Of a stretch of 64,000 nt of DNA, positions 12,506 to 56,794 are shown in pieces. The stretch lies in the IMG/VR virus record IMGVR_UViG_3300042445_001485; one strand, given 5' to 3'. This DNA comes from a virus (Duplodnaviria; Caudoviricetes). The first letter of the stretch is position 1. Each line of letters opens with the position of its first letter. The notes under the pieces were generated by a model. That model saw nothing but the letters and a program-made list of their open reading frames with translations. It made no database searches and had not been told where the DNA came from. The position numbers and the translations under genes are program-made.

Positions 12506-15169
12506 TTACTCAAATGTAAATAGACTATCAAATGTTGATTTGGTGTCAGTGCTAGATAAAATATCCCAATCCAACACACCCAATAGGTTTTCTATCTTTT
12601 GATCTACAATACCTGTTTCCATCAAGTTCTGATCAAACGGCAAATCTTTAAACCATTGTGGTATGTGTGTTTCATCTGTGGGATAACCAACGCTGGTATA
12701 ACCTAATGGATTATCTTTTAGTTTACACACAACAGTTTTCATTCCATCGATGATTTGCAACGAATAGTTATCCCCGTGCATCCTTCTCAGGTTGTTCCAG
12801 TTCATTGCGGCTCTTACATGTCCCGGCATGTTGGCTCGACCTAATCTAGCTTCTTCTGCTGTATATTTGGTTAAATTGTTTACACGCTTGGGAGTACCCT
12901 TTTCCCAGGCTGGTCTTTCTTGGAACGCATACTTGAATTCTTTAATTTTTTCAATTACTTTTTCTCTGGCATCATCGCTGGTTAGCACATCCATGAGAAT
13001 TTCACTTAGGAACTCTTGTACAATTTTAGGAGTGTCACTGCGTTTCAAATCAAGTCCCATGGCTTTTACTTTGCCCGGTTTACCATTCACATCCAAGCGA
13101 TTGTTTTCCATATCGTAGATCAATACAGCATAACGCTTCTTCTTGATAAACAGGCCTTTGCGAGCCACAAGCTCGCGACCACCCATGATGATTGCACCCA
13201 TTTCTCGGGGGCAATGGCAGGCCCGTTCCATAAACCCCGGAAACGATTCGTTCACACCATCAGCGATGGTGTCGTACAGTTGTACAGCAATGTCTTTGTT
13301 CCATTCCATTGCACCTGCGGCTACTTCCGCTTGGACCGCTGGCCACGCTGTAAAGTATACCGAGTCTGTGTCGCCATAGATAATGCTCGAACCAACGTGG
13401 TCGTAGTTGCCTGTAATTGCTTGGTTAACTGTGGCGTCCATGTGCTTGGCAATGATCCTACCAGTAAGTGTCGTACTTTGGCCAATTCGTTGGTCAAAGA
13501 ACCTGCAATGTGGGTTGAGGATAGCCCCGTAGAGCGAATTAAGATTGATCTTTTTAACGAGTTGGCGTTTATCCCAGAATGCTTTGTCTTCAGTAGCTTC
13601 TGCGGTTTTCTTTTTTGCTTGCATTTCTTGTCTTTCTGCATACCACCTTTCTAGCAGTCCGGGAATAATACCCTTCATGTCATATCTAAATATAGTACCA
13701 TTGGCACTGAGTGTCCACGGCTGATTACCATTGAATATTAATCGCCAAACTTCAGCGGCACTATGAATTGTCTCTTCACCGCTTTCCCAATCTATGGTTA
13801 TTTCTGCGCCAAGTTCATTGGCCATCACGGATTGATATTCCAAGGTACCAAACATGTTTTCCCACGCATCAGCAAAAGATGAACCTGCTGCCATCTTTTC
13901 CTTGATGTAGTGGTCGGTCATTGTGGTCCGGAGTTGACCAACGATGGTTTCTGGGCCCATGTTAAGGGCTCTAATAGCCGAGGGGTAGAGACTGTTGATG
14001 TCGATTGCGCCAATGTATTCATGGACGCCTTTTTTGGGATAAGCAACATAGGCACCTGCGGCTTGCGTTTCTCTTGGATCATCTTTGCTCTTTCTATTAG
14101 GAACAATCATACCACGCTGGTGAGCTTCATTAATGATAGCCTGCTCTGTTACTGCAACCGCACCCATTGTGGTTGGTAACAACACCGTGTTGTCGTGAGC
14201 AAGTTCATTGGCCAAGTCCAGGAAGCGAAGCTTCTTGTCCAGTTTGGCCAATAGCATGGTATCTTGTCTGTTATAGTCAATGAACTTGGGAAAGTCCTTG
14301 TTGTACAATTGATCCAGGGTGCCTTCGTAAGCAACCTTACTACCACATTCTTCATACTCACCAATTGCGTCTAGACTATAACTGTGTCGTTCCTCGTAGG
14401 TGTACTTGCGGTACAGTTGCATATAATCCATATGCACCCGACCAGCCAAGTCAAAAGTCAAATTTTCAGCACCAAAGCGTTCAAAGGTTCTTTGCTTGGG
14501 TAATTGTCCCCATAGACAAAAGCGTCTTGTATCATCCTTGCTGAGCACACGAGTGATACGCATCACAGTATAGGGAATATCAAAACCTTCCGAGTTCCAT
14601 CCGCTAAGGATATCGGCATCTTCGATCAAGTCAAGGAATGTGTTTAACATATCCTCTTCTCTTTCAAACAAATAGCAATTGTCGTATCTGTTGCAAATCT
14701 CTTCGGCGGTTTCCCACGAATAGCTTTTTGGTGGAACTACAAGTGTTACTAACTTGTCCATCCAATCCAAGTATATAGATATTGCTGTCACAGGATTAAA
14801 TGGGTCTTCGGGCTTTGAAAAGCCACGCTGGGGATCAAAGTCTACCTCAATGTCAAAAAATGCAGTCTGTAACTTGGGACTGTTTACACCCGAGTAGTTT
14901 CCTTCAAGGCAACGAAATATGGGATTGATATCACTTTCCCACAGTCTCTTACCTGAATTAATTTTCAACTCTTTTTGGAATTCTTTGCTGTTACGACTAC
15001 TAAACCTGCTGACAGGGGTATCGTAAATTGTACGGAATTTGCCACGCGGATCATCATAGTAAAAAATATAATCAGCCGGGTACTCACGATATACTCGTTC
15101 TCCGTTGACTCGCTCAACTATGTGTATCCGATCTTTTGCTCTATCAAATAGAGCATCTACATAACTCAT
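12506..15169 (-). CDS. Family B DNA polymerase (gp43-like)
   Basis: Exonuclease motifs FFDIEVD, GWNSEGFDIPY, YNRQD. Polymerase motifs DINSLYPS, KINLNSLYG, YGDTDS, KKRY. Confidence 0.96.
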   Translation of the reverse strand: MSYVDALFDRAKDRIHIVERVNGERVYREYPADYIFYYDDPRGKFRTIYDTPVSRFSSRNSKEFQKELKINSGKRLWESDINPIFRCLEGNYSGVNSPKLQTAFFDIEVDFDPQRGFSKPEDPFNPVTAISIYLDWMDKLVTLVVPPKSYSWETAEEICNRYDNCYLFEREEDMLNTFLDLIEDADILSGWNSEGFDIPYTVMRITRVLSKDDTRRFCLWGQLPKQRTFERFGAENLTFDLAGRVHMDYMQLYRKYTYEERHSYSLDAIGEYEECGSKVAYEGTLDQLYNKDFPKFIDYNRQDTMLLAKLDKKLRFLDLANELAHDNTVLLPTTMGAVAVTEQAIINEAHQRGMIVPNRKSKDDPRETQAAGAYVAYPKKGVHEYIGAIDINSLYPSAIRALNMGPETIVGQLRTTMTDHYIKEKMAAGSSFADAWENMFGTLEYQSVMANELGAEITIDWESGEETIHSAAEVWRLIFNGNQPWTLSANGTIFRYDMKGIIPGLLERWYAERQEMQAKKKTAEATEDKAFWDKRQLVKKINLNSLYGAILNPHCRFFDQRIGQSTTLTGRIIAKHMDATVNQAITGNYDHVGSSIIYGDTDSVYFTAWPAVQAEVAAGAMEWNKDIAVQLYDTIADGVNESFPGFMERACHCPREMGAIIMGGRELVARKGLFIKKKRYAVLIYDMENNRLDVNGKPGKVKAMGLDLKRSDTPKIVQEFLSEILMDVLTSDDAREKVIEKIKEFKYAFQERPAWEKGTPKRVNNLTKYTAEEARLGRANMPGHVRAAMNWNNLRRMHGDNYSLQIIDGMKTVVCKLKDNPLGYTSVGYPTDETHIPQWFKDLPFDQNLMETGIVDQKIENLLGVLDWDILSSTDTKSTFDSLFTFE

Positions 15170-17717: not shown

Positions 17718-18428
17718 CTAAGGGTGTTCTTTTAACTTGACTAGGCCAAGCGATTTAAAAATATTTATATACATCCAGCCTATATCAAATTCATACCAGT
17801 TCTTAGAGAGGCGGGCACTCGCTGGGTCCAGGTGGTGGTTGTTGTGCAACTCTTCACCGCCAATAACAATACCCCAAGGCACAATATTACGACTATGATC
17901 TTTAGTTTCGCCATTTCTATATCCTATCCAATGACCCACACCGTTTATGACTCCTGCCGCCCAGAACGGAATCCATATCATTTGGATGCCCCACATCACG
18001 ATGCCCCACCCGCCAAATATCAAGGTGTTTAACACAAGGAGAGTGCCAATGCCAAGTCTAGAGTGACGAGTGTATATGTTGTGCTCCATCCAATCAGCAG
18101 GAGTACCAGCACCGTATGTATTAACCATGTCCTTATCTTTGCTTGCTTCATGATATAATACTGCTCCTTTGAAGAATACTTGTCCAATTCCGTAAACATG
18201 GGGACTATGTGGGTCACCCTCTTGCTCAGTGAATCTATGATGCTTGCGGTGTACTGCCACCCATTGTTTTGTGACCATTCCGGTTGTTAGCCAAAGCCAG
18301 GCTCGCATAAAGTGACTGAGTATGGGATGAAATATCAATCCTCGATGTGCTTGTCCACGATGTAGGAAAACTGTGACACATATGATAGTGATATGTGTCA
18401 TCACTAGAACATATATTGTTTCAATCAT
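17718..18428 (-). CDS. Membrane fatty-acid desaturase (delta-9-like)
   Basis: Three His boxes HRGQAH, HRKHH, HNNHH plus TM helices. Confidence 0.9.
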   Translation of the reverse strand: MIETIYVLVMTHITIICVTVFLHRGQAHRGLIFHPILSHFMRAWLWLTTGMVTKQWVAVHRKHHRFTEQEGDPHSPHVYGIGQVFFKGAVLYHEASKDKDMVNTYGAGTPADWMEHNIYTRHSRLGIGTLLVLNTLIFGGWGIVMWGIQMIWIPFWAAGVINGVGHWIGYRNGETKDHSRNIVPWGIVIGGEELHNNHHLDPASARLSKNWYEFDIGWMYINIFKSLGLVKLKEHP

Positions 18429-18508
18429 ACCGGACTGTATGGATTACGAAATCTATCATATCCATTGTCTTCCGGATATACTGGGTACTCGTTATTTCTT
18501 TCACTCAT
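18425..18508 (-). CDS. 27-aa small ORF MSERNNEYPVYPEDNGYDRFRNPYSPV
   Basis: Hand-translated. Its TGA overlaps the desaturase ATG (ATGA). Confidence 0.5.
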   Translation of the reverse strand: MSERNNEYPVYPEDNGYDRFRNPYSPV

Positions 18509-18544
18509 AATATGCCATGACCTATGTTGTTATGATGGATACCA

Positions 18545-18976
18545 TTATTTTAGACTTGCTCTCAACATCCAACCGTGCTTGCGGTGTGCATCCAGGCGCT
18601 CGGCCAAGAAGTTTGAAAATCCATGCTCACCGGCTTGTTCGGCTGCATCATATGCCATCTTTAGTACCAACAGCATTTTTTCATTGTCTTGCGACAATTC
18701 ATGCAACATGGCACCGGGACTGAGTATGTCGGTCTCGTCGCCGATTTGACTCAGTTGACTGAATCTGGTGTAGCTGGCTGGCACATAACTGCCAATGCCG
18801 CGAATCTTTTCCGCAAAGTCATCAATGGCACCGTATACTTCTTCGTAGATCATGCCAAACAATTGATGATGCTCTAGGAAGTCAGCACCTTCCACATTCC
18901 AGTGAAAGTTGTGCGCTTTCAAGTAGAAGGTGTATTCGCTGGCAAATGCTATTTTTGTAGTTTCTGATAGTGTCAT
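18545..18976 (-). CDS. dps: Dps/ferritin-like DNA protection protein
   Basis: KAHNFHWNVEG, HQLFGMIYEE, DDFAEKIR, HRKHGWMLRA. Confidence 0.9.
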   Translation of the reverse strand: MTLSETTKIAFASEYTFYLKAHNFHWNVEGADFLEHHQLFGMIYEEVYGAIDDFAEKIRGIGSYVPASYTRFSQLSQIGDETDILSPGAMLHELSQDNEKMLLVLKMAYDAAEQAGEHGFSNFLAERLDAHRKHGWMLRASLK

Positions 18977-21900
18977 AGATCGTATCCTGCCTTACGCATC
19001 ATATTTAAACGAGTTTCCATCACATCGTTTTCTTTTTCTGCGTGTCTGCGAGCATCATTATCACCTTGGCGAACAGTTGCTCGGTTGATTTTTTTAAAGT
19101 ATTCGTGACCTTTATCAAAGTTGCCTGCTCGATCTGCGGCACTAGCACGGATACCTAGTTCTTTTTTGTAACGACCCAACAACTCATTGCTGAGTTCGCT
19201 GAGTTCAACATCATCATGCACCACACGCATGTGATTGGGATTCTTTGGAAGATCGTTAGTTCTTACATATTTTGCAACTTTTTCATCTTCTTGTTTGCTC
19301 ATGTCTCGTATCTGACTCAATGTAAACTTGGGCTTTTTAACCGCAGGCTTGTCTGGTTCGTTTGACATAAAACCAAATACACCGGCTTCCTCTACTGATT
19401 CAGGATACCAAATGCGTCCCAGGCCAAATGCACGGTCAGCAGTCTGCTGTGCATGTCTGTTGCCTGTACGCAAATACCACTTGCCTGCACGAGTTTGTTT
19501 GAGTCCTAGTTGTTGTGCTAGTTCGGCGTCGTCAACCTTGTAGAAGATCATGCCAGTTTGTCTACGCTGGCGATCATCAAATTCAGGATTGCCTTCGTCA
19601 TCTTTTCTACGACTGCCACCTAGACTGGGTGCTGTAGGATCTGCGAAACCATGTTGGTAGCCACCCTCCGTCATGCCTTTTTTGTCTTTTTGTGCTTTTC
19701 TTTCAGCGGCTCTGCGGGCAGTTTCTTGCGGCGTCACTTTTGAACCGTCGGCGTAATACTTGGCACCGGCACCGTCTTTGGCTTTGTTGATAGCACTTTG
19801 TGCTTTTAAGCCTGCTATGGCGTTTTTGAACTGTCTGGTTGTTTCTATATCATCAGTATAGCCCTCCGCCACACCTTGCTCTTGCCAAGTGTTATTTTTG
19901 ATTCGTTGATTTTTGATTCTTTCGTAATTCATTAAAGAACCACGAATACGATGCTGGTCACCGGTATTTCCTGATAAGAGATGTTTCTTATAATAGTCAA
20001 TCTGACTTTGAACAAACTTGTTTGAGTAACTATCTTCTTCGGAGCCTTCCGCCATGCCTTGTTGCTTTTGCTGATACGCAAGTTCAGTATTGTTGGCCAT
20101 CTGTTGTTTAAAGTTGTCTACTGCACCGCCATCGCCAGAAATTGGGGCGCCTTCCGCCACACCTTGTTCTTTGGTTAAACGATTAACTGCTTTTTCAACA
20201 CCTTTGATGCGATTTTTAAATTCATGTTTCACGGATTTAACAATAGCTGGCGAATCTTTATATTTGCCCGGTCTTGCTTTTATGTCACCTAGCCCATATC
20301 CCAACGTACCAACATCTTTATTTGCTTTATTGATATATGATCCAAGAGTTTTTGGACTTAGTTCATTCAATGATCCTGGATCAAACCACTGGTGCTCACC
20401 AATGTTTACACCTTGTGAAGGATGGAACGGATCGGTGATCTGTCTTTCATCATCCTGTTTAGATTTGCTTTTTGATTTTTCTGTGTAATCGTAATCGCTT
20501 TTCATCTTATTAACCATGGCTCTCATTGGATCAGTTTTTTCCAACTCTTTCTGAGCCCGTAGTTTGTCCATATGGCGATCAAATGCTGCGGAATCAAAGT
20601 CGGAGCCTTCCTCCACACCTTGCTCTTTCTTTGCTTTTTCTATAGCGTCCCACTCGGCACCGGTCTTTTCGCCACGCTTTTTCTTTGCTGGTGGCTTTGA
20701 TGTGCGAACACCAGTGTGACTGTTTTGGTAATCACCGCTTGGTAGTTTAGTCCAGCCTTCCGCCATGCCTTGCTTATTTTCTGATGTGCTTTTAGTTTTT
20801 AACTCTTTTGTATCATGCGTTTTGGGATGATATATTTCTACTCCGATATTACCATCATGATCCTGTTTAAGACCAGCAAGTTCATATCCTGGATATTTTT
20901 TATCAACTATACCTTTAATTCTCATGTAATCACTGTCAGAAATGTCAGCAACATCGGAGTTATCGTCCTCCGCCACACCTTGTTCTTTACTATTGTCTTT
21001 GATAGTGCCACCAAATTTAGCAGCATAGTCTTTGGCCTTTGCCACTGAATCAAAACTCTTTGTCACTTTGCCGTTCTTAACAACAGAATATCTTTGACCT
21101 TCTGAGCCTTCCGCCACACCTTGCTCTTTAACTGGCTCTGCTGGCGAAGCCAGCGTCATCTTGTTCATGCCTATTCCAGACTGTCGCCATACCTTGTACA
21201 TCTTACCATCAGCACCCTTTAGCACCATAGCATTGCCGGGAATACGACTGGAATCATATTGCACAATCATAGCATTTTGTCCACCAACTTGCACATGAGG
21301 TTTTTGGCGATCATAGTGTTGAGCACCGACTGCCATAGCACCTGCTATTACCGGAACGCCAAGCAAGGTTGCAGTATCTTTCCAGCCTTCCTCCACACCT
21401 TGCTTGTTAATCAAATCAATATTACCAAACTGTCGAAGATGTTTTATCGTGTTACCGAGATGATGGTGATAATCTGGATCGTCTTTATTGACACCATTTT
21501 GTGCTAATAATTTTTCAGCATGACGATGTAGTGGCATTTCTTTCTTCAATAGTTCCGGTGCGCCTTCCGCCACACCTTGCTCGCCATGTCTAATGCTGCC
21601 ATCCTTCATCAACTTCAAGTTGAGATTGTATTGTTTATTGTCGTGATTGACTTTATTCATACGACCTTCTTTGAAGCCTTTAGCAAAGTATTGTTTATAC
21701 ATGCCACCATGCTGACTATGCCAGTGGTTAATGGTCATTGCTCGTTCTAGTGTTGCGCCATCAGCGAGGCTTACACCTTTAGTGAAACCATCTTCTTGTG
21801 CCATCTTGGCAATTTCTGGACTGAATCCTTCATCGTCATCACCACCGTTAAATCCGTCTGGTGCAAATTCGTTCAAGCCTTCCGCCACACCTTCATCTGT

Positions 21901-22710
21901 TCCTTTTCTTGAGTCTGGCATATTCATTTGACGATATTCATCAGGCCAATCAAATACAATTTCTTCGTAGCATCTAAAAACCTTCATTAGTTCTGCTGCC
22001 TTGGGATCGTGCTTGGCTGCATCTTCTAGTTCTTCTGCCGCTGGTCTTCCAAAAGGATCTACAAAGTCTTTTGGTCCCCATGGATTGGAGGGATCGACAT
22101 TGTCGCCAAACCATACCAAGGCATCATTTACATTTGTAAATTTATTTCTTCTAGCCCATTGAGCAAAATACTCATGGTAGGGTTTGTTGTTTCTACCTGC
22201 CCACTGTATCAATTCAGAGACGCTTGTGGGCGGCATATCCTGATCAGGATACTTTGGTTCAGCAGTCATTTGGCTCATCATTGAGTCAAACTTTTGATCG
22301 CCTGTGGCTTCATCCAGTTGATCATCTGAGAACTCCATATGGTCATATGGCCCCCATTTTTGTCCTGTGCGACTGTCTATGGTGTCATCGTGATCACCAT
22401 GTTCATAGTAGTCATCACTAAAGATTTCCACACCGTTAAAGTCACTATTGTAATCAATATGCAGTTTACGGGTAACACCATCAGGACAAACAATACCACG
22501 ATTCAACAAGCGTTCTACATCTTGTTGGCTTTTAATGCCTTTTTCGAGACTGCCAGTGTCAAAGGTGCCATTGTACCAGGCACTGGCCAAGGCTTGGAAA
22601 TAATTACCTGAGTCACCACCGCCGTCAGCGGCAAATTCAGCCAGGCGGCTTTCCATGGCTAGTTGTTGTTTTTTCTTTTTGCTAGGTTGAGATAGGTCGT
22701 ATAAGTTCAT
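18973..22710 (-). CDS. Modular polyprotein-like, probably capsid-internal protein (1245 aa)
   Basis: 11 G[VM][AET]E[GD] linkers plus LAE/LDE/LNE/VEE/LSE motifs between unrelated short modules. Start MNLYDL at 22710 follows the upstream stop. Confidence 0.75.
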   Translation of the reverse strand: MNLYDLSQPSKKKKQQLAMESRLAEFAADGGGDSGNYFQALASAWYNGTFDTGSLEKGIKSQQDVERLLNRGIVCPDGVTRKLHIDYNSDFNGVEIFSDDYYEHGDHDDTIDSRTGQKWGPYDHMEFSDDQLDEATGDQKFDSMMSQMTAEPKYPDQDMPPTSVSELIQWAGRNNKPYHEYFAQWARRNKFTNVNDALVWFGDNVDPSNPWGPKDFVDPFGRPAAEELEDAAKHDPKAAELMKVFRCYEEIVFDWPDEYRQMNMPDSRKGTDEGVAEGLNEFAPDGFNGGDDDEGFSPEIAKMAQEDGFTKGVSLADGATLERAMTINHWHSQHGGMYKQYFAKGFKEGRMNKVNHDNKQYNLNLKLMKDGSIRHGEQGVAEGAPELLKKEMPLHRHAEKLLAQNGVNKDDPDYHHHLGNTIKHLRQFGNIDLINKQGVEEGWKDTATLLGVPVIAGAMAVGAQHYDRQKPHVQVGGQNAMIVQYDSSRIPGNAMVLKGADGKMYKVWRQSGIGMNKMTLASPAEPVKEQGVAEGSEGQRYSVVKNGKVTKSFDSVAKAKDYAAKFGGTIKDNSKEQGVAEDDNSDVADISDSDYMRIKGIVDKKYPGYELAGLKQDHDGNIGVEIYHPKTHDTKELKTKSTSENKQGMAEGWTKLPSGDYQNSHTGVRTSKPPAKKKRGEKTGAEWDAIEKAKKEQGVEEGSDFDSAAFDRHMDKLRAQKELEKTDPMRAMVNKMKSDYDYTEKSKSKSKQDDERQITDPFHPSQGVNIGEHQWFDPGSLNELSPKTLGSYINKANKDVGTLGYGLGDIKARPGKYKDSPAIVKSVKHEFKNRIKGVEKAVNRLTKEQGVAEGAPISGDGGAVDNFKQQMANNTELAYQQKQQGMAEGSEEDSYSNKFVQSQIDYYKKHLLSGNTGDQHRIRGSLMNYERIKNQRIKNNTWQEQGVAEGYTDDIETTRQFKNAIAGLKAQSAINKAKDGAGAKYYADGSKVTPQETARRAAERKAQKDKKGMTEGGYQHGFADPTAPSLGGSRRKDDEGNPEFDDRQRRQTGMIFYKVDDAELAQQLGLKQTRAGKWYLRTGNRHAQQTADRAFGLGRIWYPESVEEAGVFGFMSNEPDKPAVKKPKFTLSQIRDMSKQEDEKVAKYVRTNDLPKNPNHMRVVHDDVELSELSNELLGRYKKELGIRASAADRAGNFDKGHEYFKKINRATVRQGDNDARRHAEKENDVMETRLNMMRKAGYDL
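19664..21893 (-). repeat. 11 dispersed in-frame 17-bp direct repeats, consensus CAAGGTGTGGCGGAAGG
   Basis: Plus-strand starts at 19664, 19862, 20045, 20150, 20606, 20756, 20966, 21107, 21386, 21563, 21878. All spacings are multiples of 3. Confidence 0.92.
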
Positions 22711-22711
22711 A

Positions 22712-23338
22712 TTATTTCTGTCCTGGAACTGGTGCGCCAACAGCACCTGCGGGCACGGCAGTCTGTTGTGCTTGTTGTTGTTTCTTTTGCTCGGCATTGG
22801 CCTGTTTGATTAATTCTTGGAATTTGCCTTGTAGCTGTGGGTTGCTCATGATGGGTGCTAATACCGGCGCTAGATCATTGTTTTTGTCATTCATGGTCTG
22901 CATGTCAACATCAGCACCAGCTGATTTTAATTTAGAGATACCTTGTTGCAATGCGGCATCTTGTTTTGTTTTTTGTTGTTGTGCAAGTTTGGCCTGTGCG
23001 GCTAAAATTGCTGGATCTTGATTTGGTTGATTGAGATTGGGATTTTGCTGTTGACCTGCTGGCGCGGGCATCGGAGGAACAGGAGCCTCGTTAACAAAAT
23101 CTCTATACTCACGCATCAAGTCTCTGGCGGGTGTTTCGTGTAGTGCGGCTTCTAAATCACGCAGAATGCTTTCACCACCAACCAGGCGGTTTTGAAATGG
23201 ATGTTGACCTTTTTTACCCACAGCCCGATCTGTACCACGAACTTGATCACCGGGCCGTTGTTTGGGCTCGCCAGCAAACTTGACCTTGGAACCTTCTTCC
23301 AGTGCCGACAGCTGTCTTAGTAGGTCACGCATACTCAT
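22712..23338 (-). CDS. Probable capsid-internal protein, Gln/Pro-rich
   Basis: MRDLLRQLSALEEG and DFVNEA candidate protease sites. Late operon. Confidence 0.6.
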   Translation of the reverse strand: MSMRDLLRQLSALEEGSKVKFAGEPKQRPGDQVRGTDRAVGKKGQHPFQNRLVGGESILRDLEAALHETPARDLMREYRDFVNEAPVPPMPAPAGQQQNPNLNQPNQDPAILAAQAKLAQQQKTKQDAALQQGISKLKSAGADVDMQTMNDKNNDLAPVLAPIMSNPQLQGKFQELIKQANAEQKKQQQAQQTAVPAGAVGAPVPGQK

Positions 23339-23826
23339 TAATAAACGCCTTTACCAATCTTTGGCTGTTTTGTTTTCATTGCATTACCATATTTTTTAAC
23401 AGCGGCTGATTCTTGTTTGATACGGCGTTGCACAGGAGTTGTGGATCCTATTGCACCGATGGCCATACCACCTGCGGTACTGGCACCAACACTGGCAGAC
23501 TCTGCTACAACTTCTTCGAATCGACGATCAGCAGATTCATAAGCAAACGCAGGCATTGCGCCCGATTCTTGTTCTTTATGCTCGTAACTCAAATACTCAT
23601 AAACAGTACGCAAGTAATCATTGGCCAGGGTGATCTTTTCACTAACCCATCCTTCCAGTTGTCCTGTCTCTTTTATACCTTGCAAAATTTTGTGCAGTTT
23701 GATGGCATAGTCTGCGGCATTGTAGCAGTCAGCACGGGCCATTTGTACTTCATGGTCGCCATGCATTTCATTGGCATCTTGTGCTATAAATGGGTTGTGT
23801 TCTACAATAAAATCTGTTGGTTTCAT
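23338..23826 (-). CDS. Probable capsid-internal protein
   Basis: N-terminal MKPTDFIVE resembles the T4 capsid-targeting sequence. TAAATA at 23853-23848. Confidence 0.6.
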   Translation of the reverse strand: MKPTDFIVEHNPFIAQDANEMHGDHEVQMARADCYNAADYAIKLHKILQGIKETGQLEGWVSEKITLANDYLRTVYEYLSYEHKEQESGAMPAFAYESADRRFEEVVAESASVGASTAGGMAIGAIGSTTPVQRRIKQESAAVKKYGNAMKTKQPKIGKGVY

Positions 23827-23855
23827 ATCCTGATCCTGGTTATGCTATATTTATG

Positions 23856-26396: not shown

Positions 26397-27107
26397 TTAG
26401 GCAATGACCACTGGATGAATATTTAATACGCAACCCGGATGTATCAGTTCCAAAAAGGTAGTTATCCGCGTATCGTTGGCATAAAACCAAATACTCCAAA
26501 AACCATTATATTTTGAATCTAACATTCGTTTAACACCCGGAGAAACTTTAACTTCGTCTGTGCCCATACTCTCTAAATAGTTAAGAATTTGTTGTTTAGT
26601 AGCAACATCACAGCGACCGTCGCGCAGTACAACTTTATATTGATACCCAAATTCTTTCTTGCGTATAATTACACCGTTTTTAAGCAATTCTTGTGTGGCA
26701 TCATCAGCAGGACCCGACACAGATAATAATATAGTTGAGTACTTTGTTTCAATTTGGTCAACCATGTCTTTTAACTCGGTTTCAGTTTCTGTATAAAACT
26801 GTACTTCGGGTTCTTCAATACGCATCTTAATGTGCGGATTGGCATCTTTTAATTCACGAATAATGTGTAGTAATTCTACATCTATAATATCGTTTAAAGA
26901 AGCACCCTTGCCCCAATAACCTCCGGGATTGAATTGCCGGAAATGCCGTCTTGATTCAACAGCTTCAGCATAGTCTCTGTTTTCGTATATAATACGCCCG
27001 CCAGGCACAGACAATTTTATTCGATATAGATATTTTCCAAAAAACTGTTTGGTAGTTTCTTCGAATTGAATCGAATAGTTTTTATTTTTCCAGTACAATA
27101 TATCCAT
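26397..27107 (-). CDS. Hypothetical protein
   Basis: About 236-aa ORF overlapping the end of clpA. Confidence 0.65.
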   Translation of the reverse strand: MDILYWKNKNYSIQFEETTKQFFGKYLYRIKLSVPGGRIIYENRDYAEAVESRRHFRQFNPGGYWGKGASLNDIIDVELLHIIRELKDANPHIKMRIEEPEVQFYTETETELKDMVDQIETKYSTILLSVSGPADDATQELLKNGVIIRKKEFGYQYKVVLRDGRCDVATKQQILNYLESMGTDEVKVSPGVKRMLDSKYNGFWSIWFYANDTRITTFLELIHPGCVLNIHPVVIA

Positions 27108-29376
27108 GCTCATCCACAATAGGGGGTGCTTCGATTACCAGTCTGCTGTCAAAGGTAAATTCTGTTTTGTTCCAGTCTACTGTAATGCTACTGTTGGCAG
27201 GCACACGCTCAAACAAGATCTTTTTACTCAGTGGCACTTTGATCAAATCGTTGATTTTCCTTGCAATAGGTCTAGCACCCATTTTATCATCATATCCAAT
27301 TTCACTCAGATAGTTGATTGCATTTTCTGTAAGTCGTATACGGATATGTTTGTCTTCAAGTAGTTCATTGACTTCGTTAATAAACTTTGCCACCACTTTC
27401 TTAATGCTTAACTTATCTAGTTTATTAAATTTACAGATAGCATCTAGACGATTGCGGAACTCAGGTTTGAAGAAATCTTTAACAGCCTTGTCGTCTTCGT
27501 CTGTTTTATCAACACTACCAAAACCAATTGATTTGCGTTCGTTGTCAGCGGCACCCAAATTACTAGTCAGTATAACAATGCTGTTACGGGCGTCTGCTTT
27601 TTTACCGTTACTACTGGTTACATTACCCTCGTCCATTAATTGTAATAATATATTACTGACATCTGGGTGTGCTTTTTCAATTTCGTCAAACAAAATAACA
27701 GCATTGGGACTCTTTTCTAAATCACTAATTAGCAGTCCGCCACCCAAGTTACTGTCCTCGTAGCCTACATACCCCGGGGGTGCACCGATCAGTTTACTGG
27801 CCGAATGCCGTTCTTGGTACTCACTCATGTCGTATCTTAATAGTTTCATCCCAAGGTTCTCAGCTAACAGTTTAGCAAATTCAGTTTTACCTGTGCCTGT
27901 TGGTCCCAGAAATAAGAAGCTACCAATTGGTTTATTAATGGCTTTTAATCCTGCACGACTGACATAGATTCTTTCTAACACAGAATCTACTACATTATCT
28001 TGTCCGTATAGTTTGGTTTTTACATTGCCTTCTAAGTTATCTAGACTCTTAACTGTCTCTGCACCAATTTGATCTGCTGGTATTTTTGTAAACTTACTAA
28101 TGGTGTTAATAATATCAGCTCTAGTAATAGTCCAATCGTTTTTAATTAATTTAATAGATGCACAGGCAGTATCTATTAAGTCGATTGCTTTATCAGGCAG
28201 TTTTTTATCTGTTTGATATCTAACACTTAGATCAACAGCACTATCTATTGCAGAAGCGTCAATGGTACCACCATGAAACTCTTCAAAGTATTCTTTTAGT
28301 CCACGCAAAATATCTTTGGCAACCGCAGGGGTCGGTTCTTCAACTGTTAATCGATAGAAACGACGCATCAATGCACGATCCTTTTCAAAGCTCTGTGTAT
28401 ATTCAGCCCAAGTTGTGCTGGCAATAACTTTTAATTGTCCTTTGCCCAATGCAGGTTTGATCATGTTGCTAAAATCTACTGAACTTTGTGATCCAGATCC
28501 TGCGCCTTGCATTTGATGAGCTTCGTCAATGAACAAAATACATCGACCTTCTTCAATTAAGGCATCAATGACTTCTCGTACTTTTTCTTCAAACTCGCCG
28601 CGGTACTTACTACCCGCTAGAATAGTTCCTATATCTAGATTATATACTGAATAGTCTTTGAGATAGTTGGGCACTTCACCGTTAACAATGTTTCTTGCCA
28701 GTCCCTCGGCTATTGCAGTTTTACCAACACCAGCATCACCCACCAATAATACATTGCTTTTATTTCGTTTGGCCAATACTTGAGCTATTTCATCTAATTC
28801 AAATTCACGGCCAATGACAGGATCAATTTTGCCCAACTTTGCCAACTCAGTTAAGTTTGTACAATACTCGGCTAATACTCCATTTGATTTAATTTTCCTA
28901 GCCGCTTTCTTCCCATGTGTTTCTTTATAATTTTCGTTATAGAACTCTACTAATGCGTTTCGATCTAAGCCATACTTGATCATAAAATATGCGGCATGGC
29001 TATTTGTTTCAGTGGTCATACTTAAAAATATGTCTACTACTTGTATATGTGTACGACCGCTAAACAATACTTGAGTGAGTGCATGATTAAACATACGCTC
29101 TAGAGCATGTGTTTTTTTAGGCTCACATCCATGTTCTCTACTTATTAGATATTTTTGTGTTTCTAGATAGTTGCCAATATCATCCAGCATTGCATCTATA
29201 TCACAGCCAAATGCCACTAGTAAATCATAAAATGGTTTAAAAGATACCATGCCTTTGAGCAGGTGTTCTAAAGTGACATACTCGTGATTATGTTCTTTGG
29301 CAGAACTAATTGCAGAATTAACAATTACTTCAATTTCGGGATTGGGTTGTATGGTCATCTTGTCGTTGTGAATCAT
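27082..29376 (-). CDS. clpA: ATP-dependent Clp protease ATPase subunit
   Basis: N-domain HEYVTLEHLL, GDAGVGKT/IDEAH, GPTGTGKT/FDEIEK, IGF loop, no ClpB middle domain. Confidence 0.9.
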   Translation of the reverse strand: MIHNDKMTIQPNPEIEVIVNSAISSAKEHNHEYVTLEHLLKGMVSFKPFYDLLVAFGCDIDAMLDDIGNYLETQKYLISREHGCEPKKTHALERMFNHALTQVLFSGRTHIQVVDIFLSMTTETNSHAAYFMIKYGLDRNALVEFYNENYKETHGKKAARKIKSNGVLAEYCTNLTELAKLGKIDPVIGREFELDEIAQVLAKRNKSNVLLVGDAGVGKTAIAEGLARNIVNGEVPNYLKDYSVYNLDIGTILAGSKYRGEFEEKVREVIDALIEEGRCILFIDEAHQMQGAGSGSQSSVDFSNMIKPALGKGQLKVIASTTWAEYTQSFEKDRALMRRFYRLTVEEPTPAVAKDILRGLKEYFEEFHGGTIDASAIDSAVDLSVRYQTDKKLPDKAIDLIDTACASIKLIKNDWTITRADIINTISKFTKIPADQIGAETVKSLDNLEGNVKTKLYGQDNVVDSVLERIYVSRAGLKAINKPIGSFLFLGPTGTGKTEFAKLLAENLGMKLLRYDMSEYQERHSASKLIGAPPGYVGYEDSNLGGGLLISDLEKSPNAVILFDEIEKAHPDVSNILLQLMDEGNVTSSNGKKADARNSIVILTSNLGAADNERKSIGFGSVDKTDEDDKAVKDFFKPEFRNRLDAICKFNKLDKLSIKKVVAKFINEVNELLEDKHIRIRLTENAINYLSEIGYDDKMGARPIARKINDLIKVPLSKKILFERVPANSSITVDWNKTEFTFDSRLVIEAPPIVDEHGYIVLEK

Positions 29377-39377: not shown

Positions 39378-39626
39378 TCAGTCACCCATGACCACCAATC
39401 GTTTGATATCTCGAAGTCGGGGAGAGATGATATTGTGTACGGTACCTTCGTGCTTGATGGGTAAGTCAACTTGTACCATAACCAAGGGTGCTATCTCACG
39501 CACCACACTTCCAACAAAAGGAATCCGATTCCAATGTCCAAACACTCTGTCTCCGGAGTTGTATTTAGGGTTAGGTAAATCTGCATCTCTGCGTTCAAAG
39601 TATCGCGTCAGACTACTCATCTGCAT
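39378..39626 (-). CDS. Hypothetical SH3-like protein
   Basis: PKYNSGDRV...PFVGSV pattern. Confidence 0.55.
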   Translation of the reverse strand: MQMSSLTRYFERRDADLPNPKYNSGDRVFGHWNRIPFVGSVVREIAPLVMVQVDLPIKHEGTVHNIISPRLRDIKRLVVMGD

Positions 39627-39840
39627 CTACTCCGCCTGCAAAGTATGCTAGAGCCAAATCACGGGCTTGTTCCACACTTGACGCAGGTACAGTGACCAAT
39701 GCAACTCGATCAATGATGTGCATGTAGTAGGGTACAGTTCCATAAAAGGCAAAATTTTCGGGTACGGTAACTTGTACTTCAAATTCTGTCAAACCCTTCA
39801 TGCCAATTTCAATATCGTTGATAAAATCTCGTGCATCCAT
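39613..39840 (-). CDS. Hypothetical protein
   Basis: 75-aa ORF with AAGGA SD. Confidence 0.6.
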   Translation of the reverse strand: MDARDFINDIEIGMKGLTEFEVQVTVPENFAFYGTVPYYMHIIDRVALVTVPASSVEQARDLALAYFAGGVDADE

Positions 39841-43608: not shown

Positions 43609-44532
43609 TTATTTGCTAATTTGGCATAATTCGACTAAACAAGCCGAAAGATTGATCTCCGGATCAGCAACCATTGAATGGTTGACCATTCCTTTGCGTA
43701 TTGCTAAAATTGCTTCGTCTTGTCCTTCGGGAGTCTTGCTCCACATCTCAAGGTTGTCGTACATCCAACGGAACATTTCGTTGATGTCTTCCACTGCGGC
43801 CTGTGTGCAAATCACACTACGAGCCTGTCGGATAGCACCCATCTTCATAAAGTTGACTGCTTCCAATTTCCAGTCTTTGACACCACGATCATTTTCACTG
43901 GGTCGGTTCAATGCACCGGTTGTTGTGTTGCTCTGTAATAGATTTAAACATTTACGCAAGTCTGGGTAAGTTGCCTTGACATAGCTATCCAAGGTATCTA
44001 GATCAAATTCCTTGCCTTCTGTGACCAACACAGTTGCGGCTCTGGCAGTAAACTCAGTTACATCGCTTTTGTCAATGTGGAAACTTTGGCAACGACTGTG
44101 TAGAGCATCCATGATTTTGTGTGGCATGTTACAAGTAAAGATAAAGCGAGCTTGACTTGCGTATGTTTCAAGTAATCCACGCATGATGCCTTGTGCCGGC
44201 GGACTCAAATAGTCGGCCTCATCCATTAGCACAACCTTGAATCGACCAAACGGCATGGTCTGCACAAAGCCTTCAACTGACTTCTTGATAAAGTCTACAC
44301 CATTGTCACGACTGGCGTTGATCTGTAGCACATCAAACTCATCAATGCCCAATTCGTTAATCAACACCTTGGCCAGTGTGGTTTTACCTGTGCCTGGGCT
44401 ACCACTTAACAGTATGTGCGGTATAGTACCTTCTTGAACCCACGACTCAACAATTTGTCTTTGATTGGCGTCAGTGAATACATAATCACTGACTGTTTTG
44501 GGTCTGTATTTTTCTGTCCAAAGTTCTTGCAT
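43609..44532 (-). CDS. Clamp-loader AAA+ subunit (gp44/RFC-like)
   Basis: WTEKYRP, GSPGTGKT, INAS, DEAD, SRC. Confidence 0.92.
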   Translation of the reverse strand: MQELWTEKYRPKTVSDYVFTDANQRQIVESWVQEGTIPHILLSGSPGTGKTTLAKVLINELGIDEFDVLQINASRDNGVDFIKKSVEGFVQTMPFGRFKVVLMDEADYLSPPAQGIMRGLLETYASQARFIFTCNMPHKIMDALHSRCQSFHIDKSDVTEFTARAATVLVTEGKEFDLDTLDSYVKATYPDLRKCLNLLQSNTTTGALNRPSENDRGVKDWKLEAVNFMKMGAIRQARSVICTQAAVEDINEMFRWMYDNLEMWSKTPEGQDEAILAIRKGMVNHSMVADPEINLSACLVELCQISK

Positions 44533-44683
44533 CTGTTTCTTCCACTGTTGAATTGCTATTATACACGCTCTGCGCGGTATCGTCAATGTCTTTGGCTTTA
44601 TTCTTAGCAAATATACGATCAAAATTGTTGCCAAATTCTGTTTGACTTACACTAAATGGCCTTGGGTTAGATCCTTTACTCAT
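44486..44683 (-). CDS. Small hypothetical protein
   Basis: MSKGSNPRPFSV...FDRIF. Overlaps the clamp-loader promoter. Confidence 0.5.
   Translation of the reverse strand: MSKGSNPRPFSVSQTEFGNNFDRIFAKNKAKDIDDTAQSVYNSNSTVEETDARTLDRKIQTQNSQ
44558..44586 (-). promoter_or_regulatory. Sigma70-type promoter for the clamp loader
   Basis: TTGACG-N17-TATAAT. Confidence 0.75.
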
Positions 44684-53208: not shown

Positions 53209-54777
53209 TTATACTCTACCTACAACAATTTCTATGATACCAACTTCGTCACTATCATAGTTCTGTAGTGCTTTACCTATCACTGTTCCTATGTGTGGAC
53301 CAACTGGTGGCATACATGCAGTTGCCACTCCTGGTACATTGCTAGTGACCATCATGTCACCGCGACAAATAGTGCCAACAACACGACAAGGCACACGCCC
53401 TTGGAGTGCTACAGCAACACCGTCAGCCGCACTGTTCATTAGGTAAGCAGGATTGGTAGTAACTATGCCAGCAACACGATTATCCTCATAAACAGTACTG
53501 ATAGTGACTTCGGTGTCTGTGCCAAATATCAATACAGTACCAGGTTCGTAGTCCAAGTCGGACTGATATTTCTCTGCCAAGTCAGCATATTGTGCTGTGG
53601 TGGCCTTGGCAAAGATGGTATTAAATGTATTTGTTGAACTACCAATGTTGCCTGTGCCGGTAGTTCCGTTTTTAGTGATGCTTGGTAAGGTAATGCCAGC
53701 AAAAGTGGGGGTAGCCGCAGTTTGTAAATCTTGTGCAGTATTGATTGTGGCTGTGGAACTACTGATTGTGATGCCTATACCATTACCACTGGCAAATGTC
53801 AATGTGCCACCACCTGCAACAGATCCCGATCCACCGGTTCCTGCCAGGGTAATTGTGGTTGTTGTTGCGGCAATGTTGCCAGTACCGATTGAAATTATAC
53901 GACCGTATGCATCTGTCGTTATAACTGGAACCACTGTTGCGCTACCGTAAGTTCCTGCACCTGGTCCTGTTGATGGCAAACTGATTGCATTGCCGCTGAT
54001 GGTTAAATTACCTGCACCCGAACTAGTACTTACCGCACGAATTCCGTTGTCATACAAACCTTGTCCGTATACAGTACTGTTTACAATAGTATTTCCGCTG
54101 ACTGCTAGTGCAGTTAATGTTCCGACCGATGTAATCGCAGTTTGTGTGCTGGTAAGAACACTTCCGTACAGATTACTAGATATATTACCAGCGGTTAAGT
54201 TTCCAGTAATACTGGCATTGCCAGTTGTTTGTAATGTTCCCGAGGCTGTCAAGTTGCCCGCTGTTATATTACCAACAAATTGCGCTGTTGTGGCAACAGT
54301 TAAACTGGCCACAGTCAAGCCACTGGAAATATTAAGATTACCTGCTGTTAAGTTGCCGGCAATGCTGACCAGACCGCCTACAAACAAATTACCACCTATA
54401 CCGGCACCACCTACAGCTTGCAATGCGCCAGTGGTTGTACTAGTGCTGGGTGTTGTGTTAGAAAAGATTCCAAGGTCGCTAACAGTACCGCCTTGCCAAT
54501 CACCCGAGAGAGCTGTTAAAACTTGAGAACCACCGGAATAAACAATATCGCCTCTAATAGCCTGACCATATACTGTACCCGAGTTTGCACTAATGTCGTT
54601 GTTTGCTGTGATATAAGTCACAGGATACGTTGCACTTTGAGTTCGTGTGCCGTTGAGTTGATTGTTTAGTTTGTCTGTGTTTTCGTTGATGATCGTAAAT
54701 GCGGCTCTGATAGTTGATCCATCACCTGCATTTGCATCTGATCCAGTGTTAACACTGGTAAATTGGGTAGTTGGCAT
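53209..54777 (-). CDS. Tail fibre protein
   Basis: N-terminal GSDANAGDGSTIRAAF anchor, G/T/N-rich stalk, C-terminal ADLAEKY...VALQGRVP domain. Confidence 0.75.
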   Translation of the reverse strand: MPTTQFTSVNTGSDANAGDGSTIRAAFTIINENTDKLNNQLNGTRTQSATYPVTYITANNDISANSGTVYGQAIRGDIVYSGGSQVLTALSGDWQGGTVSDLGIFSNTTPSTSTTTGALQAVGGAGIGGNLFVGGLVSIAGNLTAGNLNISSGLTVASLTVATTAQFVGNITAGNLTASGTLQTTGNASITGNLTAGNISSNLYGSVLTSTQTAITSVGTLTALAVSGNTIVNSTVYGQGLYDNGIRAVSTSSGAGNLTISGNAISLPSTGPGAGTYGSATVVPVITTDAYGRIISIGTGNIAATTTTITLAGTGGSGSVAGGGTLTFASGNGIGITISSSTATINTAQDLQTAATPTFAGITLPSITKNGTTGTGNIGSSTNTFNTIFAKATTAQYADLAEKYQSDLDYEPGTVLIFGTDTEVTISTVYEDNRVAGIVTTNPAYLMNSAADGVAVALQGRVPCRVVGTICRGDMMVTSNVPGVATACMPPVGPHIGTVIGKALQNYDSDEVGIIEIVVGRV

Positions 54778-54877
54778 ATAGCGAAAATTCCATTATTATA
54801 AGTTATTTATCGCTATACCAATCTAGACCAAAATTGGATAATGTGCGTAGATTATACTATCGCAGAATTTTCATTTT

Positions 54878-56794
54878 TTAGTTTTCTAATTTCAACATAG
54901 TTACAGTAATAGTAACATTGGCTGTATCAGCACTGGTTACAGTTGCTTTCAGTGGTATATTGGTATTGGCCGTGTTCTCGTTGTTAAATCCGTATACCGC
55001 CGGAGTAAAAAATTGTGTAATATTTCCCACATTAATAGTTTGGGCAATGATGCCTGTTCCTGTTGGTGGCGTTTCTCCAACCAGTCTGGAATAGTCTGTT
55101 ACTCGTGCCGCAAGATTGGAATATATTGTTACCCAAACATTGGCCGTTGTATTGGCTGAAGTTCCTATGCTGTATAATGCATAACCTTTAAAACCAGTTA
55201 TGTTGATGTTGCCACCCACATTAGATGTTAACACAGTTGGTGTAGCAATCACGGCTGTTCGGGAAACAGTCAACGCAGTAATAGCATCTGCTTGAACACC
55301 TGCATTACTAGTCCATGCAGTTGTGACGGTGCTGTTTTGTGCATCAACATATGACTTCATTGAGGTGTTTGCTGTGACAATAGCGGCATTGGCACCAATT
55401 ATAGAATTGTGTTGCGCTAATGCATTACCAGTCAATGCAGTAATGGCATCTGCTTGTACACCGGCATTGCTGGTCAATGCAACTATAGAATTGTGTTGCG
55501 TGGCCGCATTGGCCGCAACGTTTGCAATAAGAACATGTGTAATTGCAACAATGTTGCCTTGTAGTATGCTAATGGCATCTGATTGTACACCGGCATTGCT
55601 TTGTAGACTAGAAATGGCATCTGCCTGCACCCCGGCATTGCTGGCCAATGCAGTAATCAATCCCGCTTGACTTGCGGCATTGCTTTGTAGACTAGAAATG
55701 GCATCTGCCTGCACCCCGGCATTGCTGGCCAATGCAGTAATCAATCCCGCCTGACTTGCGGCGTTGGCAGTCCAGGCAGTGGTAACGGCTGAATCCTGTG
55801 CATCCACATAACTTTTCATTGCTGTATTGGCTAACACAATTGCGGCGTTGGCACCTGTGACCCAACTTTGTGTGGTTGATATTTGTTCGTCAGCATATGA
55901 CTTTAGAGCAGTATTGGCTGTGACAATGGCCGAATTACTGCCAGTAATCTTACTTTCTAAATTGCCCAACCAGGTTACCATTACACCACCAAAACTAGCA
56001 TTGTTGCTCAATGCTGTGCCAATTTCAAGCAGGGTGTCTAGTGCAGTAGAAGCACCACCGGTTAGTGTGGTAAACCGTGTGTCCACATAACTGGTCAATG
56101 TTGTACTGGCCGTGGTTATTTGGTAGTCGGTGTAGGCTTTTAATGCTGTGTTGCCTGCTTCCCACCCATAGGTTCCTGCATCAACATAATTCTTCATTGC
56201 TGTGTTGGCAGTAATAATTGCCGCATTGGCCCCTGCTATCTGATTTGCTTGAGCACCTGCGTTTGCAGTCCATGCTGTGGAAATTGCAGAAGTTTGTGCA
56301 TCAACATAGCTCTTCATTGCTGTGTTGGCTGACACAACAACAGCGTTACCAGCACTGACTCTGCTGGTTAATAATATGTTGCCCAGTTGCAAGTTGTCTA
56401 CATCTACATCTCTACTGTATTGACTAGATTGTAGTGAGCTAATTTGTCCACGAATGGAAGCGAGATCTTCGGCAGCAATGGCAGTTGAAATTTGTGTACC
56501 AATTGCAGTAACATTAGGCAATAAACTGTTGACATAAGTTAAATTGGCATAATTAGTCAAGTTGTTTTGTACAATGGTGCTGACATTGCCAATGCTGACA
56601 GCGCCGGGTATATCATTGATGGTCAAAGTGACATTGCCTGACCGAGCATTTATGCTGTATACTCCAGCAGTCAAGTTGCCGCCGACCAGTGAAACTTGGT
56701 AGAAGTTTCGATTTACCTTATCAAATGCAACACGCAATGAATCACCAGAGTGATCTCCTGCGGTTACACCTAAATTAATGTTAGCAAAGCTCAT
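54878..56794 (-). CDS. Coiled-coil fibre protein
   Basis: N-terminal GDHSGDSLRVAF anchor, ANTAMKSYVDAQ and SNAGVQADAI repeats. Confidence 0.75.
   Translation of the reverse strand: MSFANINLGVTAGDHSGDSLRVAFDKVNRNFYQVSLVGGNLTAGVYSINARSGNVTLTINDIPGAVSIGNVSTIVQNNLTNYANLTYVNSLLPNVTAIGTQISTAIAAEDLASIRGQISSLQSSQYSRDVDVDNLQLGNILLTSRVSAGNAVVVSANTAMKSYVDAQTSAISTAWTANAGAQANQIAGANAAIITANTAMKNYVDAGTYGWEAGNTALKAYTDYQITTASTTLTSYVDTRFTTLTGGASTALDTLLEIGTALSNNASFGGVMVTWLGNLESKITGSNSAIVTANTALKSYADEQISTTQSWVTGANAAIVLANTAMKSYVDAQDSAVTTAWTANAASQAGLITALASNAGVQADAISSLQSNAASQAGLITALASNAGVQADAISSLQSNAGVQSDAISILQGNIVAITHVLIANVAANAATQHNSIVALTSNAGVQADAITALTGNALAQHNSIIGANAAIVTANTSMKSYVDAQNSTVTTAWTSNAGVQADAITALTVSRTAVIATPTVLTSNVGGNINITGFKGYALYSIGTSANTTANVWVTIYSNLAARVTDYSRLVGETPPTGTGIIAQTINVGNITQFFTPAVYGFNNENTANTNIPLKATVTSADTANVTITVTMLKLEN
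55592..55759. repeat. 84-bp near-perfect tandem duplication within the fibre gene
   Basis: GGCATTGCTTTGTAGACTAG...GACTTGC at 55592 and 55676, one mismatch seen. Confidence 0.88.

Follow-up and report, generated by a model that had tools for sequence, protein, structure and literature searches.

The cassette polyprotein gene and its modules

The DNA analyzed here (the window) is a stretch of 64,000 nucleotides (nt) from IMG/VR virus record IMGVR_UViG_3300042445_001485 (Duplodnaviria; Caudoviricetes), whose source is an uncultured lake-water giant phage related to T4. The gene under study, referred to as the cassette polyprotein gene, occupies 18973..22710 on the minus strand and encodes a protein of 1245 amino acids (aa) that is divided by 11 copies of a short linker. 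This open reading frame (ORF), first reported in a preliminary description made from the sequence alone, proved to be real. An alternative reading from 22797 adds 29 residues (1274 aa). Because homologues begin at M30 of this longer reading and a 1245-aa database copy is identical, M30 (22710) was taken as the start; the identical 1245-aa protein is recorded on eight contigs. Residue numbers below follow the 1274-aa reading, and a slash in a motif marks the bond after the junction Glu.

The main features of the locus are as follows:

23848..23854 (-): ATAAATA, late-promoter-like motif, 21 nt upstream of gene 1
23338..23826 (-): operon gene 1, 162 aa; its leader MKPTDFIVE/H resembles the T4 capsid-targeting sequence (CTS) MKTYQEFIAE
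22712..23338 (-): operon gene 2, 208 aa; N-terminal part MSMRDLL ...
18973..22710 (-): cassette polyprotein gene; overlaps at its start with the stop of the preceding gene and at its stop with the start of a ferritin-like gene
22633..22710 (-): N-terminal leader MNLYDL ... RLAE/FAADGGG, common to the N-termini of several homologues; ends L-A-E
22303..22638 (-): module A, aa 54-165, more widespread than any other cassette; always after [LIV]-x-E-F-A-P and a Gly run
21877..21894 (-): linker 1, E-G-V-A-E-G; L-N-E/F-A-P next in tandem; end of an in-frame 771-nt joint
21565..21879 (-): module B, aa 307-411, between linkers 1 and 2
21562..21579 (-): linker 2, exact 18-mer; contig loose ends at 21561-21563 and 21580-21581
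21385..21402 (-): linker 3, QGVEEG variant; end of a clean in-frame 780-nt joint
21106..21123 (-): linker 4, exact 18-mer; loose ends at 21104-21109; 771-nt joint
20965..20982 (-): linker 5, QGVAED; loose ends at 20967
20755..20772 (-): linker 6, QGMAEG; loose end at 20774
20605..20622 (-): linker 7, QGVEEG variant; 780-nt joint; loose end at 20603
20353..20373 (-): second-type junction S-L-N-E/L-S-P in the 152-aa segment; opens an ELSxxxLxxY module
20149..20166 (-): linker 8, exact 18-mer; loose ends at 20149, 20166 and 20168
20044..20061 (-): linker 9, QGMAEG; loose end at 20045
19861..19878 (-): linker 10, QGVAEG
19663..19680 (-): linker 11, KGMTEG, more diverged than any other copy
18976..19206 (-): C-terminal module, aa 1198-1274; begins L-S-E/L-S; C-terminal in many homologues

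The polyprotein gene comes third in a unit of three genes whose stop and start codons overlap, and in relatives the cluster is headed by the same gene 1. The ATAAATA motif upstream of the cluster is kept in three relatives (L002, L007 and G001) and also stands at comparable distances upstream of the tail-fibre-like genes of the window (53209-56794); the minus strand has 10 copies of it and the plus strand one. In other phages, the N-terminal part of gene 2 is joined to module A via F-N-E/F-A-P. Contigs of a lake-water metatranscriptome (run X19) matched window positions 18814-19613 and 22032-22914 at 90-99% identity and cover parts of the polyprotein gene and of gene 2; DNA carry-over is possible, so that these matches are no proof of transcription, and the parts of the gene left uncovered carry no meaning.

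The pattern G[VM]xE[GD] occurred 11 times in the ORF, compared with a mean of 0.12 and a maximum of 2 in the shuffled protein, and the linker Glu residues are located at positions 306, 411, 470, 563, 610, 680, 730, 882, 917, 978, and 1044. Ten copies fitted the seven-residue pattern of the preliminary description strictly, while the first reads D-E-G-V-A-E-G and does not. The segment lengths given there (105, 59, 93, 47, 70, 50, 152, 35, 61, and 66 aa) correspond to linker-to-linker spacings with one linker included. Its additional LAE, LDE, LNE, VEE, and LSE sites were all found, most of them at the ends of homology blocks. The reported differences in charge between segments were also confirmed (isoelectric points from 4.5 to 9.6). 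Both segment starts of the ELSxxxLxxY type were present, but they are related only weakly (E 0.012).

Comparison with 227 homologues, all metagenomic, demonstrated a modular anatomy. Each homologue has one to three segments in common with the polyprotein, at 60-95% identity and at differing positions, and at least 12 segments of the polyprotein have separate sets of homologues, in agreement with the earlier proposal of unrelated, autonomous modules. GVAEG was the most common 5-mer across 118 homologues, and 23-33% of homology-block ends lay within 8 residues of a linker, as compared with 7% for random positions. Module A was detected in members of 167 representative clusters; the proteins that carry it are 155-1648 aa long, and it may lie anywhere within them. 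In structure predictions of single modules, A and B each folded alone and the junction residues were disordered (module A: AF2 pLDDT 84.7, N-terminus disordered; module B: AF2 pLDDT 83.7, both ends disordered). Module B also occurs in single genes of 100-184 aa that are 60-96% identical and consist of a T4-CTS-like leader (MNKNIRDYINLIE..), QGVAEG, (S)LNEFAP, and the module; some end at the precise point at which the next linker would be expected. Likewise, the ELSxxxLxxY module of the 152-aa segment was found in another contig behind the leader MKPSDFLTE/.

Profile searches assigned none of ten separate segments to a family, except that the C-terminal module weakly matched phrog_26930, whose function is unknown. 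The whole polyprotein matched no family in Pfam or PHROGs, and a fold search of module A against the PDB (Foldseek, VIA-align) gave no match above noise. Assignment of module B as a winged helix was rejected, since the weak Foldseek and VIA-align rows were not significant. ESM Atlas returned only unnamed viral clusters for the modules, and megablast and tblastn searches of 50,697 phage records (cultured phages) gave no match. Full-text literature searches for the linker motifs yielded nothing relevant, and no published description was found. Among 52 homologues, enzyme cassettes comprised three CTP_transf_like domains and one each of HD_4, Polbeta NTase, NT5C, and Amidoligase_2; a GATase cassette was also found, and several other cassettes are domains of unknown function. 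The cassette at 21109-21387 (minus strand; aa 471-563) opens with the hydrophobic helix noted in the preliminary description (GWKDTATLLGVPVIAGAMAVGA), a start that recurs after linkers in several unrelated contigs (QGVAEG WKDVVAG.); its sequence suggests that this cassette may be membrane-directed.

The linker as a DNA element and recombination point

At the DNA level, the linker is an 18-mer with the codons CAA GGT GTG GCG GAA GGC. Matches to this 18-mer with at most 3 mismatches numbered 10 in the 64-kb window (0.04 expected), all within the polyprotein ORF. The Ala codon was GCG in 8/8 linkers of the polyprotein and in 26/29 linkers of relatives, against a background of 4-9%, and the Val codon was GTG in 8/8 and 20/26 linkers, respectively, against a background of 22-24%; the relatives for these counts were chosen by protein similarity. 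Identity of orthologous codons was alike in linkers (66%) and modules (65%), which places the DNA constraint on the choice of GTG and GCG rather than on all six codons. At least 120 viral contigs of IMG/VR carried the exact 18-mer; of its 154 copies, 153 were in frame as QGVAEG, with unrelated flanks.

The polyprotein stretch was detected in at least 18 lake-water metagenomes. Breakpoints were analyzed by aligning contigs of four metagenome runs to the stretch, so that the evidence is at contig level only. Linkers make up 4.9% of the stretch, yet 19 of the 24 listed contig loose ends fell on them. Two joints with perfect flanks were in frame: one between 20603 and 21384 (780 nt, shorter side 251 nt), by which four cassettes were removed, and one between 21104 and 21876 (771 nt, shorter side 92 nt), by which three were removed. 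The sequence common to both sides of each joint was 18-21 nt long. Logan assemblies use 31-mers; since the common sequence is shorter than this, the linker-to-linker joins should rest on real reads. Joints with sides of only 20-24 nt were left out, as these are matches to the repeated linker itself.

These results indicated that the linker is an 18-base-pair (bp) element (CAAGGTGTGGCGGAAGGC) that is conserved as DNA and coincides with natural breakpoints, and that it supplies in-frame homology for exchange, deletion, and fusion of cassettes between phages. Taken alone, this combination of cassettes and recombination is highly probable. The preliminary description had interpreted the linkers as protease sites, which the analysis of the junctions supports at the level of sequence (see below), but it had missed both their conservation as DNA and their role as breakpoints.

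One of the single module B genes is located among small genes behind an ATAAATA and directly adjoins a GIY-YIG homing-endonuclease-like gene (L173, 8458-9144, minus strand), and HNH-like genes adjoin the capsid gene in two relatives (L182 and L183). Endonuclease-driven repair could help cassette exchange. Several small genes of L173 (7682-7963, 10150-10368, and 10899-11138) have MNERI[RT]EL starts, HFGVE ends, and unrelated middles, as a hypervariable array of mini-genes.

Conservation as DNA could alternatively reflect a role at the level of RNA or translation, in which the GTG or ATG of the linker acts as an internal start, or GTG-GCG as a programmed pause, giving nested products or aiding folding. 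The variable residue of the linker is indeed encoded by GTG throughout where it is V and by ATG where it is M, both codons can serve as starts, and GCG is a rare codon here. However, no ORF was found to start at a linker in approximately 150 loci, on which ground the internal start was rejected, and the free-standing genes have their own upstream Met leader. Moreover, no consistent Shine-Dalgarno sequence precedes the linker, and the change from V to M is the one-transition change expected from GTG, with L and I variants occurring as well. A role in RNA or translation is therefore very improbable.

The same DNA evidence is central to a second alternative, according to which the polyprotein is an uncleaved multi-domain protein. 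Its modules would then work while still strung together like beads, either in the cytoplasm or in the virion, and the linker would be a flexible spacer held constant as recombination DNA. The use of rare codons in the linker, the occurrence of the exact 18-mer in so many contigs, and the breakpoints and deletions at linkers all favor this explanation, and the enzyme modules of the homologues need no release. The DNA role and recombination alone could account for part of the linker conservation.

Junctions as candidate prohead-protease sites

In T4, the prohead protease gp21 cleaves after L/I-x-E, a 10-residue leader directs internal proteins to the core, and fusions of internal protein IPIII up to the size of beta-galactosidase are packaged (PMC9026906). 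The T4 leaders read MKTYQEFIAE and MKTFKEFTS. For comparison with this rule, 267 variant linkers with 1-4 mismatches were collected (a reversed-pattern control gave 8), in which mismatches were distributed over the codons as follows:

CAA: position 1, 105; position 2, 17; position 3, 18
GGT: position 1, 10; position 2, 29; position 3, 28
GTG: position 1, 41; position 2, 4; position 3, 39
GCG: position 1, 18; position 2, 23; position 3, 46
GAA: position 1, 3; position 2, 1; position 3, 25
GGC: position 1, 12; position 2, 102; position 3, 115

The Glu at P1 was kept in 263/267 variants and P3 was V, M, L, or I in 265/267, while P5 and P1' were free to vary. On these counts, conservation of P3 and P1 is a constraint at the protein level that matches the gp21 rule. 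The earlier suggestion of a T4-type cleavage motif thus found support, whereas the phiKZ rule (S/A/G at P3), cited there as a second precedent, did not fit. For the uncleaved protein, losses should be spread evenly across the codon positions if the constraint acted purely on DNA. Instead, positions 1 and 2 of the Glu codon (4/267) and position 2 of the Val codon (4/267) were protected; DNA constraint alone would not explain that third positions vary while the Glu and the P3 class do not.

Two kinds of junction were distinguished, Q-G-[V/M]-A-E/G and [L/I/V]-x-E followed by either F-A-P or L-A-P, or by L-S. Both have a hydrophobic P3 and a Glu at P1 and lie inside disordered stretches. The second type precedes module A, module B, and the ELS modules regardless of the upstream sequence, and it keeps P3 and P1 with no synonymous (DNA-level) conservation, which again argues against a spacer maintained as DNA. 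In addition, the combination of leader and linker before a single module in the free-standing genes is unexplained by a spacer. Overall, an uncleaved protein appears somewhat unlikely.

Versions of the junctions were also found at protein N-termini (MRINDILVE/FAP, MRLRE/FAP, MKPSDFLTE/LS, and MRINEILVE followed by QGVAEG). Since these N-terminal versions carry the same junctions, the internal junctions look like copies of leader ends. CTS-like leaders were observed in gene 1 (MKPTDFIVE), in homologues (MRINDILVE, MKPSDFLTE, and MRINEILVE), and in neighbors of the G001 polyprotein gene (MRATEFVTE and MRARDFLNE). The N-terminal leader of the polyprotein itself is, by its sequence, a possible capsid-targeting part. 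The two G001 genes, which directly follow the polyprotein gene (G001 103509-104824, minus strand, equal to L011 5768-7083), encode a zincin-like HExxH protein (MRARDFLNE...) and, second, a lysozyme/chitinase-like protein with a twin-arginine-like signal (MRATEFVTE...). A 75-aa ORF far from the operon (window 39613-39840, minus strand) starts with another CTS-like leader, MDARDFINDIE.

A T4-type head assembly machinery was identified in relatives of the phage. G001, a complete 374-kb relative with the same three-gene order and a PolB 84% identical to that of the window (gp43-type, 12506-15169), encodes a Peptidase_S77 prohead protease, a T4 portal, a scaffold protein, and a gp23-type capsid protein. 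The S77 protease and the gp23-type capsid protein were both present in G001, G006, G008, and G010, and G001 and G008 were confirmed to have the T4-type portal; PolB of the S77-bearing relatives is 76-84% identical to that of the window. In four relatives, the capsid propeptide ends in L-[A/K]-E, directly before the conserved mature N-terminus. Two further relatives, G007 and G009 (PolB 72-75% identical), were rejected as S77-less counter-examples. Their contigs also lack the portal and capsid genes, and thus simply miss the whole head module. The approximately 2-fold enrichment of [LIVM]-x-E in scaffold proteins of relatives was left unused, as coiled coils give the same pattern.

Together, the data are best explained by a late-made precursor that would enter the prohead via a leader, be cut by the S77 protease after the junction Glu, and travel in pieces with the DNA, with the linker as the point of exchange; we assign this explanation a probability of about 0.5. 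In this mechanism, the third gene of a late operon would encode a precursor of approximately 15 small, independently folding cassettes. A T4-CTS-type N-terminal leader would deliver the chain to the prohead's scaffolding core, where a gp21-type (S77) prohead protease would cut after every junction Glu. The released pieces of 4-17 kDa would accompany the DNA and be delivered to the host upon infection, in the manner of T4 internal proteins. Packaging, cleavage, and ejection are proposed from sequence comparisons. The suggestion in the preliminary description that the cassettes form a library of host-takeover or anti-defence effectors is conjectural, as no module of the polyprotein matched a known family or fold.

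Several observations weigh against this explanation. The start of the polyprotein itself (MNLYDL ... RLAE/F) is only loosely similar to a T4 CTS, V or M at P3 falls outside the strict T4 L/I rule, and in G001 the linker is confined to the polyprotein gene and is not used in other head proteins. [LIVM]-x-E was not clearly depleted within modules (P0001: 6 observed versus 10.4 expected; family ratio inside modules 1.05, versus 1.2-1.3 for control motifs), which also favors an uncleaved protein. The polyprotein gene sits amid replication and metabolic genes, away from head genes, as the T4 ip genes likewise do. Furthermore, the protease and capsid genes were read in relatives only, and conservation at the DNA level alone could hold the peptide constant.

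Cleavage might also take place in the cytoplasm, by another phage protease or a host protease, with the products remaining unpackaged, as proposed for polyvalent proteins. Release of those proteins is attributed to embedded peptidases (PMC5512222). A zincin-like HExxH module does occur in a few members of the present family and, in G001, as the neighboring gene. However, it was found inside only 4 of approximately 300 family proteins and is absent from both the polyprotein and the window; as the processing enzyme, an embedded zincin peptidase was rejected as too rare. The protected linker positions match the gp21 rule, the leaders resemble the T4 CTS, and the promoter of the operon is of the late type, all of which make cytoplasmic processing quite unlikely.

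Phe and Leu N-termini are bacterial N-degron residues recognized by ClpS. Cuts at second-type junctions, which are followed by a Gly-rich, disordered tail, would expose such N-termini, which allows a more elaborate version of the packaging mechanism to be conceived: a self-diversifying cargo system in which the 18-bp junction serves both as the homology for in-frame exchange, deletion, and fusion of effector cassettes between co-infecting giant phages and as prohead-protease site, and in which the exposed Phe and Leu would give the ejected cassettes a programmed lifetime. This version is improbable. The window contains a ClpA-like ATPase gene (27082-29376, minus strand; two-ring AAA+ with a Clp_N domain), and ClpS with one or two ClpP genes was found in all five long relatives (G001, G006, G007, G008, and G009); a link between these genes and cuts at second-type junctions is speculation.

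Among the other genes of the window are a clamp loader (43609-44634) and, downstream of the polyprotein gene and in the same direction, a ferritin/Dps-like gene followed by a fatty-acid-desaturase-like gene (17718-18976, minus strand). The latter two are uncommon auxiliary genes in a phage.

Known systems and significance

One of the two closest parallels is provided by the T4 internal proteins IPI, IPII, and IPIII (and Alt). As in the polyprotein family, these have a short leader ending in hydrophobic-x-Glu, are small pieces whose repertoire is highly variable between related phages, and are encoded away from head genes in a lineage with an S77 protease (here seen in relatives). In contrast to T4, a single ORF chains many cassettes and repeats the cleavage motif internally, one of the junctions is constant at the DNA level, and packaging is proposed from sequence. 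No homology to IPI, IPII, or IPIII was detected by Pfam or PHROG searches or by tblastn in the 50,697 phage records.

Polyvalent proteins (Iyer et al., 2017, PMC5512222), the other closest parallel, also combine many unrelated domains in one polypeptide and are thought to travel with the DNA and to be divided into functional units (PMC5512222). Homologues of the polyprotein likewise carry NTase, HD (RelA/SpoT-type), NT5C, and amidoligase modules, whereas the polyprotein itself contained none of the polyvalent hallmark domains (such as RelA/SpoT, MuF, ART, and methylases). Unlike polyvalent proteins, neither the polyprotein nor most of its family has an embedded peptidase, the modules are much smaller, and the uniform junction fits a prohead protease and is conserved as DNA. 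The inner-body and ejection proteins of phiKZ, 201phi2-1, and SPN3US are cut after Glu by gp175-type proteases, at several sites and with redundant propeptide sites. However, their rule is S/A/G-x-E, whereas P3 here is V/M/L/I, the capsid lineage is different, and no homology exists.

Short conserved motifs that flank exchanged variable segments are known in T4-type phages from the glycine-rich motifs of gp38 adhesins (PMC3157838) and from PeSL cassettes (PMC2839356; PMC4122927). The gp38 motifs form the core of one domain, and PeSLs lie between genes as promoter-terminator units. The present motif, by contrast, is coding, links autonomous domains as a disordered stretch, and also resembles a protease site.

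If the proposed steps of packaging and cleavage are true, the polyprotein would represent a general route by which giant phages fill the capsid with many small proteins that come from a single gene in equal amounts, and ordinary homologous exchange at the constant junction could re-deal the set of cassettes. Small unknown domains would then become available by the hundred as candidate early-infection or counter-defence proteins, and the arrangement of leader, cassette, and linker would be a natural design for packaging of foreign proteins. If no cleavage takes place, the in-frame junction of 18 bp is still an exceptionally clear coding recombination element, present in at least 120 viral contigs and recombining in lake populations.

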